Shown: in pieces, positions 5,386-46,359 of the stretch
How positions within the stretch are numbered: the first letter of the stretch is position 1
Layout: each line of letters starts with the position of its first letter
Assembly (NCBI GenBank): GCA_040757035.1
Contig: JBFLYM010000003.1
Span: forward strand, 1,079 to 65,078
DNA length: 64,000 nucleotides
From: Candidatus Micrarchaeota archaeon
GTDB lineage: Archaea > Micrarchaeota > Micrarchaeia > Anstonellales > Bilamarchaeaceae
Direction: 5' to 3'
Translations under genes and position numbers: made by a program
Notes under the pieces: model-generated
Told to the model about the DNA's origin: nothing
Databases searched by the model: none
Seen by the model: only the letters and a program-made list of their open reading frames with translations

Positions 5386-6696
5386 TTAATAAGTCTGTTT
5401 TTGTTCTTTGTGTGCATTCTCTGTCTTTTCACGTAGTTCTTTAATAATCTTCTCTATGTTTTTTACTTTAACCTCCATTGATGCTTCACTCTCACTCAAT
5501 GCATTAATAAGTCTGTTTTTTAATTCTTCATTTAATTGCTTGGTGTCAGCAGGCTTTTGTAATATTTTTTCAAGTGCCCATGCTGCATTCCTTCTTACAT
5601 TTTCATCTTCATCTTCATCCTCTAATACTCTAATCAAAGGTCCAACAGCGCTTACATCTCCCAATTTTCCAAGTGCATCTGCTGCACGTGCTCTTACATT
5701 TTCATCTTCATCCTCTAATGCTCTAATCAAAGGTCCAACAGCGCTTACATCTCTTAATTCTCCAAGTGCCCATGCTGCATTCATTCTTACATTTTCATGT
5801 TTATCCTCTAATGCTCTAATCAAAGATCCAACAGCGCTTACATCTCCTATTCTTCCAAGTGCCCATGCTGCATTCATTCTTACATTTTCATCTTCATCCT
5901 CTAATGCTCTAATCAAAGGTCCAACAGCGTGTTCTCCTAATTTTCCAAGTGCCCATGCTGCATTCCTTCTTACATTTTCATCTTCATCCTCTAATGCTCT
6001 AATCAAAGGTCCAACAGCGCTTACATCTCCCAATTTTCCAAGTGCATCTGCTGCACATGCTCTTACATTTTCATGTTTATCCTCTAATACTCTAATCAAA
6101 GGTCCAACAGCGCTTACATCTCTTAATTTTCCAAGTGCCCATGCTGCATTCATTCTTACATTTTCATCTTCATCTTCATCCTCTAATACTCTAATCAAAG
6201 GTCCAACAGCGCTTACATCTCCCAATTTTCCAAGTGCCTCTGCTGCACGTGCTCTTACATTTTCATGTTTATCCTCTAATACTCTAATCAAAGGTCCAAC
6301 AGCGCTTACATCTCTTAATTCTCCAAGTGCCCATGCTGCATTCCTTCTTACATTTTCATGTTTATCCTCTAATGCTCTAATCAAAGATCCAACAGCGCTT
6401 ACATCTCTCAATTTTCCAAGTGCCCATGCTGCATTCCTTCTTACATTTTCATCTTCATCCTCTAATACTCTAATCAAAGGTCCAACAGCGCTTACATCTC
6501 TTAATTCTCCAAGTGCCCATGCTGCATTCCTTCTTACATTTTCATGTTTATCCTCTAATGCTCTAATCAAAGATCCAACAGCGCTTACATCTCTCAATTT
6601 TCCAAGTGCCTCTGCTGCACTGCTTCTTACATTTTCATCTTCATCCTCTAATGCTCTAATCAATTTTTTAATACGATCCTCAACATTCTCTGTCAT
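5386..6696 (-). CDS. HEAT/PBS-lyase-like repeat protein (about 13 x 31-aa repeats)
   Basis: Repeated unit …[31 protein letters not shown]…, the classic PBS-lyase HEAT-like repeat. Confidence 0.8.
5560..6665. repeat. About 12 near-identical 93-bp tandem repeats that make up the coding sequence of the HEAT-repeat protein
   Basis: Visible period-93 repetition of …catcttcatcctctaatgctctaatcaaaggtccaacagcgcttacatctc…. Confidence 0.85.
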
Positions 6697-6837
6697 CTTT
6701 CATCACCCTTATTTGATATTATAAATTGTAAAAATTTATAAATTGCACGGGTTATCTCGAAAACTCGCACCGAAAAGCGTAAGAATTTTTCTGTTGAATA
6801 TATTTGATATATAGCAAATAGGTAAATAGGTAAAAAT

Positions 6838-34052: not shown

Positions 34053-34072
34053 TGATTTTCTCTGGTTTAGAT

Positions 34073-34145
34073 CCACCAACCATAATGCACGTTTGTTCAT
34101 TGGCGGTACTCGAAAAACACCGAATTACTTAGTTGGGGGAGTATA
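34073..34145. repeat. Copy A of a 73-bp direct repeat (~88% identical to 45015-45087)
   Basis: ccaccaaccataatgcacgtttgttcattggcggtactcgaaaaacaccgaattacttagttgggggagtata. It overlaps the last 5 codons and stop of the minus-strand 838-aa ORF. Confidence 0.8.
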
Positions 34146-36641
34146 TTTTTTGTATAAATCATTAAGTTCTTCTAAAGTTGGCTCACCTTTTTTATCTTCT
34201 TTATCTTCTTTTTTCCATACAATATACGAAACAAAAAAAGGTAGGTGAAATACCTTATATGCCTGAGAATAAGATGTTATATTTTCAGCTATATCTGTAC
34301 CTGAAAAATTATCAGTGGCTTTTTTATCTGATTCATCTAATTTTTGTATATAATCCTTATATTCGTTCCAAAGGTTTTCCATTTCTTGTTGATTTGTATT
34401 CTTACTTATCTCTAGGTTGTATTTTGTTAGAATAGACATTGCCGTTTGTTTAGCTTCATCACCAAATTCTATCTTTTTAAGTGTTCCAACAAACGGATTT
34501 TTCATATTTCCAATTTCATCAGCTTCACCAGTAATTTTGCGAATAGGAATTCCTTCGTTTTCTTTTTTACTTATTTTGATTTCTTTGATTTTTATCGGTC
34601 TCACGTTTCTTGTAATTTCCTTCTTTTTCTTCATCTCTATCATCTCCTTATTTTCAATTGGTATCATCCCAATATTCTTCGTGCGATATTCCTTCAGCCA
34701 TAAAAGTACTGGGGACGTATCTCTTACCTCCCCAATTTTCTTCTTTCCACTTCTATCAAAAATTTCAGTGCCTTTTACATACTCATCATTGCCAACATTT
34801 TGAAGAGAATCCTTTTCATCTATGCATTTTGTTATTATACTAGCAACGACATTTTTCCCTATTTGTCCTTCTCCCCAAAGTTTTATCATTAAATTTATTT
34901 GATTTAAGAAATGCTGTTTTTCGTCATCCTTGGAAAATTCATAGTTTCTGAGTTTATCTTCAATAATTCTCCATCCACAGTCTTTAAATTTTTTAGTTTC
35001 AAGCGCTTTGGAAAGATTATTTACTATGTTGCATAATTTTGGTTTGATTACAGGTGCTTTTTTTTGCTTCTCTTCTTGTACTTGTTCTCGCCCTTGTTCT
35101 TCAATAAATTTATCTTTATCCTTTGTTTTATTATCTATGAATGTGCTGCTGTTCTGTATACCGATGCTCTTTGTGTTGTTTTTCCTGTATGTTTCCACCT
35201 TTCCAATTGCCTCAACTATTTCATTTAAATCTCTTCGTGGAACCGGGGTATTTGGAATTGCATATCCTTCTGGGGTTAGTTTTATTTGTCCGTTTTCGGT
35301 TTGTGGTAGTTTTGTTTTGAGATATTCACAAGAACGGTCAAGATCAAGATTTTGCGCTAATTCTTGACTCAAATTCATATTATTCTGTTCTTTTGAAAGT
35401 GCATCAATGGTTGTCTCAACATTTGTAATCGCGTTGGTTATTTTATCATTTATGTTTCTCTCTGCTAATTTTTTCTTTGAACGTAAAAATGTTGATGGAT
35501 TAAAAATATTCAATGAAATCGGCAGCCCTGAATATGCTATTGAGAATTCTATTTTATCTTCTTGATCTTTCAATTTTGCATAATCTGGCGTTGCTATTTT
35601 AGATGATATTGGAGATGATAAGAGATTTCTAATTCTTTTTTTCGCTGTATTAAAATTTCCACGTCCGATATCCATGCTTATTTTTTTATTCTCTTCTTTA
35701 ACAATGTCTGCTATTTTTTTAGGATCCGTTTCTTCTGTGCGAGATTTAAATTCCTTTACTTTAGTTGGAAATAGGCCATCATAAATATCTATAAGCTTTG
35801 CAATTGGATTTTTTACAAAGACTTCAAATGCAGTATTCCAAATATTTTGCGGAAATACCAGCTGCTTTGAAAGTTCAATAGCAAGGTTAGTTCCTTTTTC
35901 TTTGCTGCGTTCATTTGCTTTTGACCACGAAAGGGTTAGCACTCCTAATACGGTACCGAACCAATCCATACTTCTGCTGATTTTTTTTGTTAAGAAATTA
36001 TACCCCCAGCCAAATGGTCCTAATGAAAAACCGATTACAGTATTCCATAAACCGTGTTTTGGTTTTGACAATGAAACGTTTAATGGACCTCCGCCTCCTA
36101 TTCCTAGGTTCGTTCCTTTCTTTGAAATTTTTGCTGATACTCCTGATAACTCAACACTAGGTCCTAATCCATCTTTCGAATATTGCATTCCAATACGCGA
36201 TTTGGATTGAGGAGCAAAGACATTATATGATTCGTTTCCTAGGCCGATAGTTGTATCTACTGTTCCAAGTGTAGATACTTTAGTGCCAAAAGACCATCCT
36301 AAATATCTACACTTATAATCAGAGTAATTACTTTCGCGATATGCTGGGAAATGCGCTTTCAGAAAAAAATTGATTAAATCCTGATCTTTAATTTTTTTAT
36401 TTTTTGCTACTTCAGCTACCTTAAGCCATTCATCAAATTTATTTCCAATATCCGCAGATGAGTATTCTTTTTTACCCTGATCTGTAAATCTTGTTAAATC
36501 TACATAATCTGCTTTGATAGAACCATCCTTATATATTCCTTTTTGGGTAAGCGAATCTATTACATTCTTAAAGAGTCTATCTCTTGTTTCTTTCGTTTTG
36601 TCTAATAGAATTTCTTTTTCTTCTTTTTGACAAAAATCCAT
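34125..36641 (-). CDS. Large hypothetical protein (838 aa), Lys/Glu-rich with Gly-rich beta segments
   Basis: Long uninterrupted ORF in tandem with the 1268-aa ORF. No recognisable domain. Confidence 0.5.
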   Translation of the reverse strand: MDFCQKEEKEILLDKTKETRDRLFKNVIDSLTQKGIYKDGSIKADYVDLTRFTDQGKKEYSSADIGNKFDEWLKVAEVAKNKKIKDQDLINFFLKAHFPAYRESNYSDYKCRYLGWSFGTKVSTLGTVDTTIGLGNESYNVFAPQSKSRIGMQYSKDGLGPSVELSGVSAKISKKGTNLGIGGGGPLNVSLSKPKHGLWNTVIGFSLGPFGWGYNFLTKKISRSMDWFGTVLGVLTLSWSKANERSKEKGTNLAIELSKQLVFPQNIWNTAFEVFVKNPIAKLIDIYDGLFPTKVKEFKSRTEETDPKKIADIVKEENKKISMDIGRGNFNTAKKRIRNLLSSPISSKIATPDYAKLKDQEDKIEFSIAYSGLPISLNIFNPSTFLRSKKKLAERNINDKITNAITNVETTIDALSKEQNNMNLSQELAQNLDLDRSCEYLKTKLPQTENGQIKLTPEGYAIPNTPVPRRDLNEIVEAIGKVETYRKNNTKSIGIQNSSTFIDNKTKDKDKFIEEQGREQVQEEKQKKAPVIKPKLCNIVNNLSKALETKKFKDCGWRIIEDKLRNYEFSKDDEKQHFLNQINLMIKLWGEGQIGKNVVASIITKCIDEKDSLQNVGNDEYVKGTEIFDRSGKKKIGEVRDTSPVLLWLKEYRTKNIGMIPIENKEMIEMKKKKEITRNVRPIKIKEIKISKKENEGIPIRKITGEADEIGNMKNPFVGTLKKIEFGDEAKQTAMSILTKYNLEISKNTNQQEMENLWNEYKDYIQKLDESDKKATDNFSGTDIAENITSYSQAYKVFHLPFFVSYIVWKKEDKEDKKGEPTLEELNDLYKKYTPPTK

Positions 36642-36694
36642 TTAATCACTAGTAAACCACAACACGTTTAGTCTCAAGGTTTAGAAATCATAAA

Positions 36695-39600
36695 TCAAAA
36701 TTTATAATATATTGGAATTCGTGCAGAACCTCCGAGTTCAAATATCCAAATTGAACCTTTGACGCCTGTTGGTATGTATTTATCCCATTCTTTGCGAATC
36801 CCAGCGTCTATATAGTAATTACGCCCAATACTTTTCTTAATCATAGAAAGGAATAAACCTATGCTGTGATATTTGATTGTTCCGCCTGTTTCTTTACTTG
36901 TATTTTTACCGCTTTCAAATTCACCTCCGCAGTCCATTGTGCAAATTGAACCATAATCATCTCCTGGTAAGAATAGCGTTACTGCTCCGCGCACAACATT
37001 TCTATTAAACTCTAATTCATTCATTTGGTTGGCATAGTATTTTCCATTTTCATATTTTATTGCAATATACTTGCCACTAGAACCCAACTTTTCACCATTT
37101 ATTATATAACCATTAGCGCTAAAAACCACTGCCTCTGCTGTCTTTATATCTTTGTTGAGCGTGCCTCTTGTTTCACGACTTGCTCCAACAATAATACCTT
37201 CACCGCCGTATGCGTTTTTTTCTTTATTTTTTTTATATCCTCCGTATAAAAGAAGTTTGCTTCCAAATTCATTATTTACTATTACACCGCCTGTTATAAA
37301 CGCGACTGCAAGATCAAGCGGTTTGATTATTTTTCCCCCAATTCCGCGAGTATTTCCCAATGAAGTTATGGCCTGCCAACCGCCGCCATTTGCGATCGCG
37401 TAGGCATTGAACATTTCCCCTTCTTTACCTATTATACTCTCAAAACCAAAAGTCTCTCCATCCTTAGTTGTAAGTTTATATTTAAATGTGCCCATATATT
37501 GCTCTGCGATTAGCAAATTTATTGCTTTTAGTTTTCCTCTTAAATTCTCTATTTCAGCGCGCGCATTTCTATAGTCCTCCCATGCTTTGGACAGTTCCTC
37601 ATCAGAAATTCCTGGTTTTGCGAGTGTTTCAGATGCTGTATTTATATTATTAATTTCGGTCGCTATATTGTCATTTATTGCTGATTGTGCTTGGACCGCG
37701 GTTGATTTTGATGTATGAGTGGAGAATTGAAGCTTATGACGTATAAGTTTTTGTAGGTTCGGTTCTGTCTTTTGTGATTTCTGCCATTTTCCTGGTGTTT
37801 CCCGCTCTTCTGATGTTTCCCACTCTATTGCGCCAGTCAGTGCATATTCTTTATCATTATTTCCAGTAGCATTTTTTACATAACTGCCAACTATCCATGC
37901 AAGATCGCTTCCAAGACCGATGTATGCGATATTAGTCCTTGCCGCGGTTTCTAAATTTGATAGATAGGTAATATATGCTGGATTGAATTCAACGTTGTTT
38001 GTTCTCCATGTAATATCTATGCCATATTGTTTATTTGCTCCATATACTAAATCCCAAAACGAAGCAGTAGTCTTATCGCTACTTTCCTGTTTAAAAGTGA
38101 GACCCATTTCCTTTTTATCTTCTTCAGAGTACGCCCTTATAAAAGTCATTGAGTGCTCCCCAGTTTTACTATCGGTTGTATCACTACCAATTATTGCGCC
38201 AAACTGTTCAGCAAGCGTTTCTGAATTCATACCTTTCAAAACCGCAGCACTAAGCCCTGATTTTGATTTTAATCCAACAACGAATGCTTCAAGTTTATTA
38301 TTATCAATGAGCGCGCGTACATCTGCGTTAGCACTAAAGTATACTAGAAACGTGCTTTTAATGTTATCAGCGGTTTCGTTAAATGTATAGCGATACCAAG
38401 TTCCATTGGTATTGCGAACATATGCTTTTACTAAGTAGCTGTTGTCAGCGTTTTTTTCGTAAAATAAGCGCGCAAAATTCTCTTTTGTTGGTTGTTTTGA
38501 GTTAAAATTAAAGTAGCTATCAAGAGCGGCGCGTAATTGGTCATTACATACATAAAATTCTCCTTTTTGAATTTCCTTCACCGGTTCTTCTGGGGTTTTA
38601 ATATCGTTAGCAATTATTCGGAAAGCCTTTTCAGCCTTTTCATCTTCATTAATATATACACCGCCGCTTATTGAGGCGCCTTCAGTACCTATCATTTCTA
38701 CTTGAGCAATAACAGATGTTTCTGATTTACCATTCTTTCCTTTGGCTATCGCGCCCCCACCCAAAGTAAGGTAGGTAAGCGTAGTAGGTAATTTTACAAG
38801 AAATGGAATCTCTTGGTTTGAAAGTTCGCGCACGAACTCATCAATCGAAGGTATAATATAAGTGACTTTTTTATATCCTTTATCAGGAATTAATTGAAAC
38901 GAATATGGCGAGAACTCATATAAAAATTTAGACAGTGTACGATCAGTTTCTCCACCACTCATTTTAGTTGTATCTGATTCATATGCCGAATCAATAGGCT
39001 GCAATGGGTTTAAAATATAAAAATCAAAAAGAGTACTAATAAGATTAGGGGAAATTTCAACTTCTGTTATTTTATCTGAAATGTTTTTTTCCATGGCTTC
39101 AATAAGCCGCTTCAATTCCGCTTTTGTAGGTTCTGGCACATTTTCAAGTAGTGCCGAAAAACTAGCTGGATCTTTGAGCGTTTGTTCTATAAATGCTTTA
39201 AATATTGCTTTCTGCGCTTCTTGAAACGCATCCTGAACACCAATTATTGTAAACGTAAACGCAGATCTTTCACGCGCTGCGCCAGCTCTATCATAAACTT
39301 CATTCAGTCTTAGTGCAATAGCTGGAATAATCCTTGTTCTTATTTCATCCAGACCATAAGCACCGCTTTCCACAATAGCTCTCAATGTTCCTTTTGTTGC
39401 TATTTTCTCCCCATCCACATAAACATTTTCTGCGAAAAGCGCGTAGTAAGATTGTTTTGGCATTACGGCGAGCGCTTCGCTAAGTCCAGGATTTTTCTGA
39501 TCTCCAATTAATATCCTAACTCCATCTACCCCCCAATTATCTTCCATTACAGGAAGGAACGAAAGGAATGCGCGTTGGGAAAGCAGGTCCATGCGTGAGA

Positions 39601-40501
39601 ACATATCTTCTCCTTCTGCTGAATATTTGCCAAAAAAATTTCCCCGTTCAACAAAAAAGGATTTGTTTAAAGTACTGTCTACAAATTTTTGAAGTATTCC
39701 TACTTCGCTCAACTTGTTTAGCAATGGTTTACCATGTTTATCTTTCGGGATATATTGTCCAAAATTTTCAATCATTTCATTTTTAGTCATGCCAAAATGT
39801 TTTCTAACGAAAAAATTCATAACAGCTTCTTGATTTTGACCAAAACTAAGCGAACTTTGAGGAGTATAAATATTGGTTCCTGAAGCTATTGAGATATAAT
39901 TTTCAACTTTGGCATAGCATTCATTATAGTTGGCTATAATATCATAAATAGTTGAACCATTTTCAAAAAATGAAGCGAAATCCGAAACATTTGAAAAGTT
40001 ATAACCTATTGTTTGTTTTAAAACGCTGCGTTCATTTTTATTAAATCCTACTGAAGAAAGGGCGGTTTCAATAGAGGTGGTATCTTTAGCTTTAGCAAAG
40101 AGGGCACAATAGTTATTTATCTTCTCTCTAATTTTCCCCTTCTTCAAATCTGGATCCTGCTCAATACCAGCAATTGTTTTGTTGTCGTTACTTAATATCG
40201 CGAGAATGAGATTCTTTGTGATATTCTGTGCAGTCAGAAGTTCTTCTAGTTTTCTAAGATTATTTTGTGCCTCTAAATTCTCCGGATTCAATTTTATTGT
40301 TTTTTTATAATCTTGTATTGCTAAATCGTATTTTCCTTGCTTCTCATAACACAGTCCGCGATTGAAATATGCGTCTGCATTCTTCGGATTCAATTCTATT
40401 GCTTTTGTATATTCTTGTATTGCTGAGTCATAATTTCCTTTCTTATATCCTTCATCATAATGATCTTCTACCACTGATTTTTGATATTTAACTGGTCCCA
40501 T
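36695..40501 (-). CDS. Giant hypothetical protein (1268 aa): N-terminal TPR repeats, then a long unknown region and a Gly/aromatic-rich beta C-terminus ending …IPIYYKF
   Basis: TPR motifs at the N-terminus (…AIQEYTKAIELNPKNADAYFNRGLCYEKQGKYDLAIQDYKKTIKLNPEN…). Long ORF; no other family recognised. Confidence 0.55.
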   Translation of the reverse strand: MGPVKYQKSVVEDHYDEGYKKGNYDSAIQEYTKAIELNPKNADAYFNRGLCYEKQGKYDLAIQDYKKTIKLNPENLEAQNNLRKLEELLTAQNITKNLILAILSNDNKTIAGIEQDPDLKKGKIREKINNYCALFAKAKDTTSIETALSSVGFNKNERSVLKQTIGYNFSNVSDFASFFENGSTIYDIIANYNECYAKVENYISIASGTNIYTPQSSLSFGQNQEAVMNFFVRKHFGMTKNEMIENFGQYIPKDKHGKPLLNKLSEVGILQKFVDSTLNKSFFVERGNFFGKYSAEGEDMFSRMDLLSQRAFLSFLPVMEDNWGVDGVRILIGDQKNPGLSEALAVMPKQSYYALFAENVYVDGEKIATKGTLRAIVESGAYGLDEIRTRIIPAIALRLNEVYDRAGAARERSAFTFTIIGVQDAFQEAQKAIFKAFIEQTLKDPASFSALLENVPEPTKAELKRLIEAMEKNISDKITEVEISPNLISTLFDFYILNPLQPIDSAYESDTTKMSGGETDRTLSKFLYEFSPYSFQLIPDKGYKKVTYIIPSIDEFVRELSNQEIPFLVKLPTTLTYLTLGGGAIAKGKNGKSETSVIAQVEMIGTEGASISGGVYINEDEKAEKAFRIIANDIKTPEEPVKEIQKGEFYVCNDQLRAALDSYFNFNSKQPTKENFARLFYEKNADNSYLVKAYVRNTNGTWYRYTFNETADNIKSTFLVYFSANADVRALIDNNKLEAFVVGLKSKSGLSAAVLKGMNSETLAEQFGAIIGSDTTDSKTGEHSMTFIRAYSEEDKKEMGLTFKQESSDKTTASFWDLVYGANKQYGIDITWRTNNVEFNPAYITYLSNLETAARTNIAYIGLGSDLAWIVGSYVKNATGNNDKEYALTGAIEWETSEERETPGKWQKSQKTEPNLQKLIRHKLQFSTHTSKSTAVQAQSAINDNIATEINNINTASETLAKPGISDEELSKAWEDYRNARAEIENLRGKLKAINLLIAEQYMGTFKYKLTTKDGETFGFESIIGKEGEMFNAYAIANGGGWQAITSLGNTRGIGGKIIKPLDLAVAFITGGVIVNNEFGSKLLLYGGYKKNKEKNAYGGEGIIVGASRETRGTLNKDIKTAEAVVFSANGYIINGEKLGSSGKYIAIKYENGKYYANQMNELEFNRNVVRGAVTLFLPGDDYGSICTMDCGGEFESGKNTSKETGGTIKYHSIGLFLSMIKKSIGRNYYIDAGIRKEWDKYIPTGVKGSIWIFELGGSARIPIYYKF

Positions 40502-40711
40502 AATATCACTAATATATTATTATAAGAAAGAATATTAAATATGTTGTACGTGCCTAACCACAGAGTAGCACTGGAAAGCATCTCCTCCGATATATTATAA
40601 TATATAATCAATAAATATCCTTATAACTTTTTTATAATTTTTGTGCCTGGAGTAATAGAATAATAAAATAAAAGCTGAAAAAACAAAAATTATAAATTTT
40701 GAGGTGAAAAT

Positions 40712-40966
40712 ATGGCAGAAGATGAAGGCTTTGAAGAAATAAAAGGAAGTGAAACAGAAACGCAAGAAATCTCAGGAATTGGAAAAAGACCAGAATTGCG
40801 CGTAGTTCAACCGGTTACAGACAGAGATGGAAAAACAGTATACAAAAGTGTCGGCGCAATGTGGAAAAGCGTAAGTAAAAATGGAAACGAATTCTATACG
40901 CTAAAAATAGGTGAATTGAGGCTTCTTGTATTTCCGAACACTCCTCGCGAACAAAATGACCTATAA
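40712..40966 (+). CDS. Small acidic hypothetical protein upstream of radA
   Basis: GAGGTGA Shine-Dalgarno motif upstream. 84 aa. Confidence 0.4.
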   Translation: MAEDEGFEEIKGSETETQEISGIGKRPELRVVQPVTDRDGKTVYKSVGAMWKSVSKNGNEFYTLKIGELRLLVFPNTPREQNDL

Positions 40967-40979
40967 ATAGGCGATTGCG

Positions 40980-41954
40980 ATGGCTGAAAAAAAAGAGGAA
41001 AAGGAGCAGAAATACAAAAAATATGAAGATTTAGAAGATCTTCCAGGGATAGGGCCTGCAACAAGTGAGCGGCTTAAGGCGGCAGGTTATAAAGATATTA
41101 CAAGCATCGCGTCGGCGAGTCCACATGAACTCGCCGAAGTTGGCGATTTTGGAGTTGAAGCAGCGAAAAAAGCAATAGAAACCGCAAAATCTGCAATTGA
41201 AATAGGATTTGAAACCGCGGATCAACTTAACGAACGAAGAAAAATGATAGGAAGAATAAAAACCGGTTCGGCCAACCTTGACGAACTTTTAGGCGGTGGT
41301 GTGGAAACGCAATCAATAACCGAATTTTTTGGCAGGTTTTCATCGGGAAAATCGCAAGTAGGTTTCCAACTCGCTGTTAATGTGCAAAAGCCAAAGGAAC
41401 AAGGCGGTCTTGGGGGGAAAGTAATATTCATAGATACTGAAAGCACTTTTAGACCAGACAGAATTATTCAGTTAGCCGAAATACAGGGACTGGATCCTAA
41501 CGAAGTACTTAAGAATATTTTTATCCAGCGCGCGGAAAATTCTGATCATCAAATGCTTTTAGCAGAAAAATGCGAATCGCTAATAAAAGAACATAATGTG
41601 AAATTGCTAATAGTAGATTCGCTGACTTCGCATTTCCGCGCAGATTATATAGGGCGCGGAGCGTTAAGCGACAGACAACAAAAACTTAATAAACACATTC
41701 ATCTTCTCCAAAAACTTGCTGATACATATAATATTGCGATATACATAACTAACCAAGTAATGGATAATCCAGCAATTATGTTCGGAGACCCAACCACCCC
41801 TATAGGAGGGCATGTACTTGCGCATGCGGCAACCTATCGCGTTTATGTGCGAAAAAGCAAAGATGAAAAAAGAATTGCGAGGTTGGTAGATTCACCAAAT
41901 CTTCCTGATACCGAATGCGTGTTTAAAGTAACCGCAGAAGGGATCGTTGATTGA
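40980..41954 (+). CDS. radA: DNA repair and recombination protein RadA
   Basis: N-terminal HhH (…[20 protein letters not shown]…), Walker [10 protein letters not shown], and a RecA fold. Confidence 0.9.
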
Positions 41955-44990: not shown

Positions 44991-45014
44991 TGACAATTGA
45001 TGGTTGTGTATATT

Positions 45015-45087
45015 CCGCCAACCATAATACGCGTTTGTTCATTGATGGTACTCGAAAAACACCAAGCTACTTAGTTGGAGGAGTATA
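45015..45087. repeat. Copy B of the 73-bp direct repeat. It retains a remnant …IYTPPTK* of the 838-aa ORF C-terminus
   Basis: ccgccaaccataatacgcgtttgttcattgatggtactcgaaaaacaccaagctacttagttggaggagtata. Confidence 0.8.
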
Positions 45088-45121: not shown

Positions 45122-45778
45122 TTGATTAATATATTTATGATAATTCCACTTGAGAAAAGGCTTAAAAAAAGGATGCACGTTGAAATCGCACTTCTTCAGG
45201 ACGAAATAACCGAACTACTTTATGGAATAGAGAATGACATTATCCTTCATGGCGGAACTTCAGTGTGGAGATGTTATGGTGGGAATCGCTTTTCTGAGGA
45301 TCTGGATTTCTATTGCGCCAATGTCAAAAAGATAGAACACAACTTTAAAAAGGCAGCCAAAAGCAGAGGTCTTTCTATTTTGAAATTCAAAAAAACTAAA
45401 AACTTGATTTTCTGTAAAGTATCAAACAGAAACTCCGAAGTTAGAATTGAGATAAATTTTGCGCGATTGAAAACAGCAATCTCGAAACCATTTGAAAAAA
45501 CAGATGGTACGTTCATGGAAGTGTTGACGCTATCGCCTGAGGAGCTTGTACTTGAAAAAATCAGCGCTTATCAAAACAGGAGGTTTATACGCGACATCTA
45601 TGATATATACCATCTTTCAAACTATGTAAATGATGAAAAAATCGGCGAGAGGATGATAACGTTTTTCGCTTCTCTTGAAAAACCAGTTGATGAAGAAAAC
45701 CTAAATAGTATTGTATACTCGGGAAATGTGCCAGCGTTCAAACAAATCGTAGCAGCATTAAAGAGGCGTTATTCATGA
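45122..45778 (+). CDS. Nucleotidyltransferase of the AbiEii/AbiGii (DUF1814) toxin family
   Basis: …ILHGGTSVWRCYGGNRFSEDLDFY… NTase motif. The likely real ATG is at 45137. Confidence 0.6.
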   Translation: MINIFMIIPLEKRLKKRMHVEIALLQDEITELLYGIENDIILHGGTSVWRCYGGNRFSEDLDFYCANVKKIEHNFKKAAKSRGLSILKFKKTKNLIFCKVSNRNSEVRIEINFARLKTAISKPFEKTDGTFMEVLTLSPEELVLEKISAYQNRRFIRDIYDIYHLSNYVNDEKIGERMITFFASLEKPVDEENLNSIVYSGNVPAFKQIVAALKRRYS

Positions 45779-46359
45779 AATACATTGCTAAAGTGCGCGA
45801 GCATTTCAGGAGAGTTCCAGTATTCACTATTTCAGATCTTAAAGTGTTGTTCAGAAAAATAGGTATTTCAAAGAGCTATCTTCGGCTTCTCATTCACAAT
45901 CTACTCGCAAAAGGCGAAATAAAGAAAATTTCGCGCGGCATCTATAGTTTCAGGAGCGAAACAGAAGTCGTAGGTTTTGGCTTCAGGCCATTTTATTATG
46001 GATTGCAAGATGCGCTTTCACTTCATAATTTATGGGAGCAAGAAACAAACCCTGTTGTCATCACTCCTAGAAAAGTCAGAAGCGGAATAAGGAATTTTGA
46101 GGGCGCTAACTATGTAATTAGAAGAATAAAGCGCGAAATGTTTTTTGGATTCACGTTGATAAAATATAGTGATTTTTGGATTCCTGTTTCTAACATAGAG
46201 AAGACAGTTATTGATTTTGTGTATTTTAGGCAGCAACTAAATATCGAGGTTCTTAAGGAAATTAGAAAAAAACTAGATTGGAAAACCCTTAAATCATACC
46301 TAAAACGATGCCCTTTATGGGTGAAAAATGGTGTGTTGAAAGCGTGCGGTTTGTCTTGA
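45775..46359 (+). CDS. AbiEi-like winged-helix antitoxin/regulator
   Basis: N-terminal wHTH …LLIHNLLAKGEIKKISRGIYSF… typical of the AbiEi N-terminal domain. ATGA overlap with the upstream NTase gene. Confidence 0.5.
   Translation: MKYIAKVREHFRRVPVFTISDLKVLFRKIGISKSYLRLLIHNLLAKGEIKKISRGIYSFRSETEVVGFGFRPFYYGLQDALSLHNLWEQETNPVVITPRKVRSGIRNFEGANYVIRRIKREMFFGFTLIKYSDFWIPVSNIEKTVIDFVYFRQQLNIEVLKEIRKKLDWKTLKSYLKRCPLWVKNGVLKACGLS

Follow-up and report, generated by a model that had tools for sequence, protein, structure and literature searches.

Two adjacent giant genes in a 64,000-nt stretch of Candidatus Micrarchaeota archaeon DNA (GenBank assembly GCA_040757035.1, contig JBFLYM010000003.1, positions 1,079 to 65,078, 36% GC; hereafter, the window) belong to a three-family operon. 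Gene A encodes a 1268-aa protein and gene B::C an 838-aa protein in which a family B module is joined to a family C module. Our sequence comparisons support the conclusion that A and B::C are functionally linked and represent a lineage-specific DPANN module, the rearranged version of a very rare operon restricted to a few Micrarchaeota. The best explanation, to which we assign a probability of about 40%, is that A, B, and C form one hetero-complex, most likely cytoplasmic and possibly peripheral to the membrane, that would serve as a non-enzymatic scaffold with the tetratricopeptide repeats (TPRs) of A recruiting an extra partner. This reading is supported by the conserved adjacency of the genes, the fusion of C to B, the missing export signals, and the lack of enzymatic domains.

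A homology search with the whole of A was flooded by TPR proteins, each covering ≤11% of the query, and word-indexed searches with the A core and with B returned self-hits only. An exhaustive phmmer/HMMER scan of 1.84 billion representative proteins, with A aa 95–1268 as the query (TPR removed), retrieved P0122 as the only full-length relative (36% identity, E 1e-159; 1181 aa; query residues 24–1169 of 1174), and a contig-end fragment of the A family, P0123 (E 4e-49). P0125 and P0126 are two fragments of one A-family protein from GCA_018813445.1, which carries the NCBI name Candidatus Micrarchaeota. A further match, P0124, is a repeat protein and was discarded as spurious. Scans of JGI metagenomes and IMG/VR with the A alignment gave no relatives.

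The contigs that carry these homologs reveal a typical operon in which a C gene (319–459 aa) precedes A (~1180 aa), followed by B (~660 aa). The most complete example, L019, comprises a 408-aa C gene, a 15-nt gap, the A homolog, a 4-nt gap, and a 662-aa B gene. Contig L020 shows C followed by A, and two contigs of one metagenome-assembled genome (MAG) together supply the remaining order, with C and the N-terminus of A in L022 and the C-terminus of A followed by B after a 7-nt spacer in L021. In L023, C is followed by a more diverged A-like open reading frame (ORF) that runs off the contig. The spacers across these loci measure 4–26 nt, and that between A and B in the window measures 53 nt. Wherever it can be checked, a partner gene adjoins the A homolog. 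The GC content of the cluster-bearing contigs spans 0.37–0.53, which indicates that the linkage has survived deep divergence, and the synteny with housekeeping genes (tyrosyl- or tryptophanyl-tRNA synthetase, TyrRS/TrpRS, and a PyrK-like protein) is the same in three genomes of very different GC. A preliminary description of the window, made from its sequence, had proposed that the pair could be a novel cell-surface or host-interaction module and had suggested examining its distribution and gene co-occurrence. The idea of a linked module is supported: partner B is conserved beside the A homologs that can be checked, and a third module, C, is conserved as well.

In the window, the gene order is A followed by B::C, with C moved and joined in frame to B, where it replaces the variable C-terminal region of B. 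Residues 527–656 of the fused protein share 50% identity over 130 aa with the L019 408-aa protein (E 8e-36), and a second matching segment spans aa 699–808. The N-terminal domain of the C family is the best-conserved part of the whole C-A-B system. As evidence of the Rosetta-stone type, the fusion speaks for a joint physical action of the B and C modules. Comparisons of A with B and of A with C by hhalign revealed no relationship, which is why we treat A, B, and C as three unrelated families; a motif common to A and B, NFF[VL]xxHF, was taken as chance.

Two further observations concern the operon. Homologs of C (P0129, P0130, and P0131, aa ~150–215) contain a central SxAEIAKKTGxxxEEI-type segment with sub-threshold winged-helix hits (RPA_C, HTH_NPRL3, DUF7646; E 0.06–0.1), and this segment is shortened in the fused protein of the window (aa ~690–715). 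Divergent genes face the C-A-B operon in L019 (6804–8680, minus strand), L022 (85–1165, minus strand), and L023 (7377–9166, minus strand); they encode a KaiC-like single-domain ATPase, an MJ0538-like protein, and a Cys-rich lipobox-like protein of ~190–210 aa. No such set occurs in the window, and it could be either a functional partner or mere conserved synteny.

Both genes are real, as their open frames are too long to arise by chance and have diverged homologs. At 36% GC, ~7% of random codons would be stops, and simple arithmetic puts the chance of an open frame of 838–1268 codons at <1e-25. The two co-directional giant ORFs noted in the preliminary description were recovered at the positions given in Table 1, and their translations contain the peptides quoted there (...GGSARIPIYYKF*, ...GIGGGGPLNVSLSKP..., and GFSLGPFGWGYNF). 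Each ATG is preceded by an identical Shine–Dalgarno-like motif, TAGTGAT, which lies 4–10 nt before the ATG of A. An identical A protein is on record at NCBI as a "TPR protein" (Candidatus Micrarchaeota, GCA_049322435.1, JBMORY010000033.1). The identical 838-aa protein is known from NCBI and recurs in an independent Logan assembly, so the fusion is not an assembly artefact. The two giant genes resemble housekeeping genes in their codon usage (correlation r 0.89–0.91), and such native-like usage indicates that they were not recently imported. A bacterial-type promoter and terminator scan of the locus was uninformative for an archaeon.

We examined the domain make-up of A by using homolog comparisons, hydrophobic-moment periodicity, and single-sequence AlphaFold2 (AF2) runs on A (aa 95–1268) and B. 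The TPRs predicted at the N-terminus of the 1268-aa protein are present, but only as two units, which are 83% identical as DNA over 75 nt with a spacing of 102 nt. This DNA-level identity indicates that the pair is a recent duplication. It is the sole significant internal repeat in A, and we found no other. The TPRs are missing in all A homologs, and the homolog N-termini (P0122, P0123, and P0125) start where the TPR of the window protein ends. Since every homolog begins at this point, the TPR pair is best regarded as a lineage-specific N-terminal acquisition that lies outside the family architecture.

The N-terminal half of A shows mostly α-type periodicity, with aa ~95–560 helical in the low-confidence AF2 model, and aa ~545–900 lean toward β. 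Periodicity in aa 995–1268 is ambiguous, with at most a slight lean to β. The Gly-rich C-terminus described previously is present (13–19% Gly in residues 1001–1268). It contains the most conserved block of A, aa 1045–1094, with 62% identity, and indels between A and P0122 within the C-terminal domain are limited to 1–3 residues. The final residue across the A family is Phe, Trp, or Leu. A and P0122 have hydrophobic residues at positions 1, 3, 5, 7, and 9 from the C-terminus, and P0126 has Arg at position 3, so that one sequence of the three departs from the alternation. Within the most conserved block, P0122 carries ARGVGGKT (aa ~960–975), which fits the P-loop consensus [AG]x4GK[ST]. The corresponding window sequence is TRGIGGKI (aa 1049–1058), and we rejected a family-wide Walker A motif; nucleotide binding is not conserved. 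The B module comprises a helical N-terminus, a Gly/aromatic segment (GPFGWGYNF; GPF[GTA][YW]GYN across the family), and a helical region. B is basic, and its AF2 model includes a helix run at aa ~305–370 with a predicted local distance difference test score (pLDDT) of ~70–80.

Table 1. Features of the A/B::C locus in window coordinates.
Feature	Coordinates	Strand	Description
Gene A	36695..40501	(-)	1268 aa, ATG start; TPR pair at N-terminus plus family-conserved core; from ORF listing, translation, identical NCBI protein, and homologs
TPR pair	40262..40480	(-)	A aa ~8–80; Pfam TPR_1/TPR_11, E 1e-18; extension specific to this genome
A-family core	36698..40219	(-)	A aa 95–1268; aligns with P0122 from end to end (36% identity, E 1e-159)
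Helical hairpin or coiled coil	37499..37708	(-)	A aa ~932–1001; only part of A at pLDDT ~70
C-terminal Gly-rich basic domain	36698..37495	(-)	A aa 1003–1268; probably β; isoelectric point (pI) 9.2; ends ...IPIYYKF
A–B spacer	36642..36694	(-)	53 nt; holds B's own Shine–Dalgarno-like motif
Gene B::C	34125..36641	(-)	838 aa, ATG start; family B fused with family C; from ORF listing, translation, NCBI, and Logan
B module	35202..36641	(-)	aa 1–480 of the 838-aa protein; aa 19–476 match the 662-aa L019 gene (27% identity, E 6e-43); aligns with P0127 and P0128
C module	34128..35063	(-)	aa 527–838 of the 838-aa protein; separate gene upstream of A elsewhere; aligns with P0129, P0130, and P0131
74-nt repeat copy 1	34072..34145	(-)	Last 7 codons of B (YTPPTK), stop, T5 tract
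74-nt repeat copy 2	45014..45087	(-)	Orphan gene-3'-end remnant between the H+-pyrophosphatase and AbiEii genes; no ORF attached
Intergenic region between A and orf84-RadA	40502..40711	n/a	AT-rich, divergent; presumed promoter

Searches of Pfam, NCBIfam, PHROGs, PADLOC, and PDB sequences with A and B::C matched no family beyond the TPR pair of A, and the 838-aa protein had no Pfam match. Apart from the TPRs, A, B, and C showed no known or enzymatic domain (nuclease, NTPase, or other effector). Profile searches with alignments of A, B, C, and the A C-terminus gave no significant match to PDB sequences, and A aa 1003–1268 and its homologs matched no Pfam family even at E ≤ 10 and no PDB entry. 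For both proteins, PADLOC-DB returned 0 families at E ≤ 1, and PHROGs contributed one weak hit (E 0.0019) to a family without an assigned function. A tblastn search of 50,697 phage and virus records produced no match, INPHARED gave none for A, B, or C, IMG/VR held no relatives of the three, and a literature search by accession was likewise negative.

Export signals are also missing. Over the first 40 aa, the 12-residue hydropathy (KD12) peaks at -0.07 in A and at values ≤1.18 in 13 of 13 family members, as compared to 2.4–3.6 for control proteins from the same or related genomes (a surface protein, a lipobox protein, and a pyrophosphatase). Thus, the earlier remark that no signal peptide is visible in A extends to all 13 members of the A, B, and C families, none of which has an N-terminal hydrophobic segment while the controls are positive. 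By hydropathy, these 13 proteins also contain no transmembrane (TM) helix; one conserved, moderately hydrophobic segment in A, LDLAVAFITGGVIVNNEFG, is borderline.

In the complex that we propose, A would provide the large backbone, running from a helical N-terminal half through a β-rich middle and a helical hairpin to a C-terminal domain that is Gly-rich and basic. B would be a basic partner with a Gly/aromatic segment, and C a small adaptor. In the lineage of the window, C has relocated and fused to the C-terminus of B, and the duplicated TPR pair gained by A would offer an extra protein-docking site.

Several points weigh against this proposal. The suggested scaffold role draws mostly on the absence of other features, and the physical association of A, B, and C is itself only inferred. 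Both A and B have Gly/aromatic amphipathic segments, and A has, in addition, the conserved, moderately hydrophobic LDLAVAFITGGVIVNNEFG and a hydrophobic or aromatic C-terminal strand. B and the C-terminal domain of A have a basic pI. Membrane activity or unconventional export of A or B is therefore a possible reading of the same features, and a report on ARMAN-type cells describes two membranes, one inner and one outer (PMC4243693). Homologs of A or B were not found at 12 other Micrarchaeota RadA loci, although orf84-RadA is conserved there. In light of this absence, the C-A-B cluster is accessory or very fast-evolving, and it occupies a different locus in the lineage of the window. A 487-aa ORF at the equivalent locus of L002 is unrelated to A or B. 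Finally, with a mean pLDDT of 35.1 (A) and 36.1 (B), the AF2 models are too poor to use.

We regard it as unlikely that the genes form an accessory cassette, either for defence or of a mobile element, that was acquired and moved as a unit and whose large effector complex would use the TPR for sensing or as an adaptor. The distribution of the cluster is indeed patchy, with no copy at the RadA neighbourhood of 12 related MAGs, and the locus in the window differs from those in L019, L022, and L023. The wider surroundings include AbiE toxin–antitoxin genes as well as a DUF4143 ATPase, and the C homologs contain a weak winged helix-turn-helix-like motif. As a large TPR protein in an accessory cluster, A also recalls the STAND/Avs-like TPR sensors of defence systems. 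Unlike these sensors, however, A has no NTPase or effector domain and no PADLOC match, and its TPR is not ancestral. More generally, A, B, and C have no PADLOC, PHROG, INPHARED, or IMG/VR match and no nuclease, NTPase, or other effector domain. The housekeeping synteny (TyrRS/TrpRS, PyrK-like), identical across three genomes that differ widely in GC, also argues against a mobile cassette, as do the native-like codon usage, the lack of an integrase, and the finding that the flanking repeats are not att sites.

We consider it quite unlikely that A, B, or both form an exported envelope or host-contact apparatus, an extension of the idea in the preliminary description. In that case, they would leave the cytoplasm by a non-Sec route, their Gly/aromatic β segments would insert into or span an outer layer or membrane belonging to the Micrarchaeon or to its host, and the TPR would serve for docking. 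In favour of this explanation, the Gly-rich C-terminus of A ends in a strand with alternate hydrophobic residues in the window protein and P0122, with Phe, Trp, or Leu as the last residue, and the B segment GPF[GTA][YW]GYN weakly matches TbuX, a barrel of the FadL family, in a profile search, at a level that is not significant (E 0.1). The two membranes reported in ARMAN cells (PMC4243693), the fast divergence (21–36% identity) that is typical of interaction proteins, and the position of the end of B's ORF within the 3' module of a surface-protein gene fit as well. Against it, 13 of 13 members lack a signal peptide or TM anchor, both of which are present in the real surface proteins of related genomes. 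Nor is the TPR conserved, and no outer-membrane-protein family appears at E ≤ 10. Arg at position 3 from the C-terminus of P0126 breaks the β-signal-like pattern, and the indels of only 1–3 residues between the C-termini of A and P0122 are unlike variable surface loops. Furthermore, β-barrel assembly machinery is not known from archaea.

The preliminary description had likened A to the BcsC/PgaA/Slam-like porins, which combine TPRs with a β-barrel, and this reading is not supported. The resemblance consists of N-terminal TPR units and a Gly/Tyr-rich, probably β-rich, C-terminus ending in an aromatic residue. In contrast to these porins, A lacks a signal peptide, has only two TPR units, which are missing in its homologs and hence not ancestral, and derives from an archaeon; no barrel family was detected at E ≤ 10, and no BCSC_C, PgaA, or DUF560-type barrel model matched. 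Between the TPR and the C-terminal domain lie ~900 residues of unrelated, largely helical sequence. The TPR_Slam score was 20.9 bits against a cut-off of 35.2, and the DUF560 barrel was not matched, which does not support a Slam identity. The adjacent genes, in the window or in relatives, have no polysaccharide synthase or modification function (the neighbours in other genomes are TyrRS/TrpRS, a KaiC-like ATPase, and a PyrK-like protein), which speaks against an exopolysaccharide porin. A β-rich, membrane-active C-terminus of A is conceivable.

The giant secreted surface proteins of Micrarchaeota and DPANN (a 1334-aa protein in L014 and a 1225-aa protein in L004, located by RadA) provide another comparison. 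Like A and B, these proteins are large, lineage-specific, and unannotated, and they occur in the same neighbourhood; B also shares its last codons and 3' untranslated region (UTR) with the L014 gene. However, the L014 and L004 proteins carry both a signal peptide and, at the C-terminus, a TM anchor, whereas A, B, and C have neither, and the similarity between the two groups is limited to a ~35-nt 3' module.

Improbable, in our view, is a third explanation in which soluble proteins become membrane-inserted or bridging, in the manner of pore-forming toxins or lipid-transfer bridges, and open or maintain a cytoplasmic contact with the host. A and B are soluble, lack export signals, and have conserved Gly-rich amphipathic segments; an α-hairpin lies between β-rich regions of A; and the organism is an episymbiotic member of the DPANN (background in PMC8975820). 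This case is purely circumstantial, with no homology to pore-forming or lipid-transfer families. Foldseek searches of the low-confidence A model against the PDB returned only generic α-hairpins at E > 0.1, with AcrA/MexA among them. The ~70-aa hairpin of A, flanked by β-rich sequence, superposes on the AcrA/MexA α-hairpin, but the statistics (E 0.14–1, query-normalised TM-score 0.06) correspond to a generic hairpin and an analogy at most. Unlike AcrA/MexA, A has no lipoyl or β-barrel domain signature and no signal peptide.

Least probable of all is a new kind of archaeal envelope or host-contact machine of double-membraned Micrarchaeota, in which two β elements, the Gly/aromatic C-terminal domain of A and B's GPFxYGYN segment, would reach and enter membranes without Sec signals; if true, these would be the first β-barrel-like outer-membrane or cell-bridge components described in Archaea.

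Judged on negative searches, C-A-B appears to represent new families that form a new cluster, and remote homology to a known fold is formally possible. An uncharacterised family is unsurprising in itself, because most lineage-specific families of DPANN lack a predicted function (PMC8204110). If A, B, and C form the single scaffold complex that we favour, it would be a machine confined to a few representatives of a phylum with an episymbiotic lifestyle and reduced genomes, where 6.3 kb of conserved non-enzymatic coding sequence is costly to retain. Two anonymous ORFs have become a defined three-family system with clear domain boundaries, in which the fusion predicts a contact between B and C and the TPR docking site is specific to one lineage. 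The conserved operon and the natural fusion make the system experimentally tractable, and the analysis removes annotation as a "TPR protein" or a BcsC-like porin, a tempting but wrong route.

The pair is flanked on one side by genes for a CBS protein, a DnaG-like Toprim protein, a MiaB-like protein, and TruD. Beyond gene A, transcribed divergently, are a conserved 84-aa ORF (orf84), RadA, a carbamoyltransferase (OTCase), and an H+-pyrophosphatase (H+-PPase). The preliminary description placed the pair between 73-bp repeats. Two direct copies do flank it, but each is 74 nt long, four housekeeping genes are also enclosed, and the copies are not mobile-element borders. These are the only two copies in the window, they are 88% identical, and copy 2, which follows orf84-RadA-OTCase-H+-PPase, is separated from the 5' end of gene A by 4.5 kb. 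Read in the sense of the gene, the repeat comprises the last 5–7 codons (…TPPTK), the stop, a T5 tract (probably serving as an archaeal terminator), and ~40 further nt.

A partial third copy occurs in L014 (13566–13600), at the 3' end of the 1334-aa surface-protein gene just downstream of RadA. This protein, which is secreted and C-terminally anchored, ends in ...DTPPTK*, followed by the same T5-containing 3' region. Approximately 35 nt of the 3' UTR are 88% identical between the window and L014, although the corresponding RadA proteins are only 72% identical. The repeats are thus shared gene-3'-end modules and probably recombination relics at a variable "giant gene" slot near RadA. We rejected island or mobile-element borders, as the segment between the copies holds RadA and other core genes. 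A noncoding RNA was also rejected (no Rfam match, unremarkable folding z-scores, and a weak RNAalifold result on three copies), as was an att site, for which the IMG/VR 17-mer matches are due to chance.

Giant signal-peptide proteins (760–2175 aa) are encoded within a few kb of RadA in L004 (13376–17053, minus strand), L014 (9581–13585, plus strand), L006 (11710–18237, minus strand), and L008 (10974–13256, minus strand). Those of L004 and L014 are homologous (24% identity), and the window has no such gene, only 3'-end remnants. Upstream of RadA, orf84 (window 40712–40966, plus strand) is conserved at 12 Micrarchaeota loci with 50–76% identity and no Pfam or NCBIfam match, and it is thus an uncharacterised conserved RadA partner. 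The RadA genes of L013 (8210–10651) and L014 (7540–9312) contain an in-frame insertion of ~0.8–1.4 kb after residue ~125–133, probably an intein, which the window RadA (40980–41954) lacks. An AbiEii/AbiEi type IV toxin–antitoxin pair lies beside repeat copy 2 (window 45122–46359, plus strand), and a similar pair is found near RadA in L013 (5014–6422, minus strand).

Across the whole 64 kb, ARAGORN detected no tRNA gene, and no Rfam family reached its gathering threshold. Finally, a gene at 5386–6696 on the minus strand of the window encodes a 436-aa protein that consists almost entirely of HEAT/Arm repeats. A 438-aa ORF antisense to it (5408–6724, plus strand) has no family match and is probably spurious, and the underlying 93-nt tandem DNA repeats (5470–6702) are up to 96% identical.

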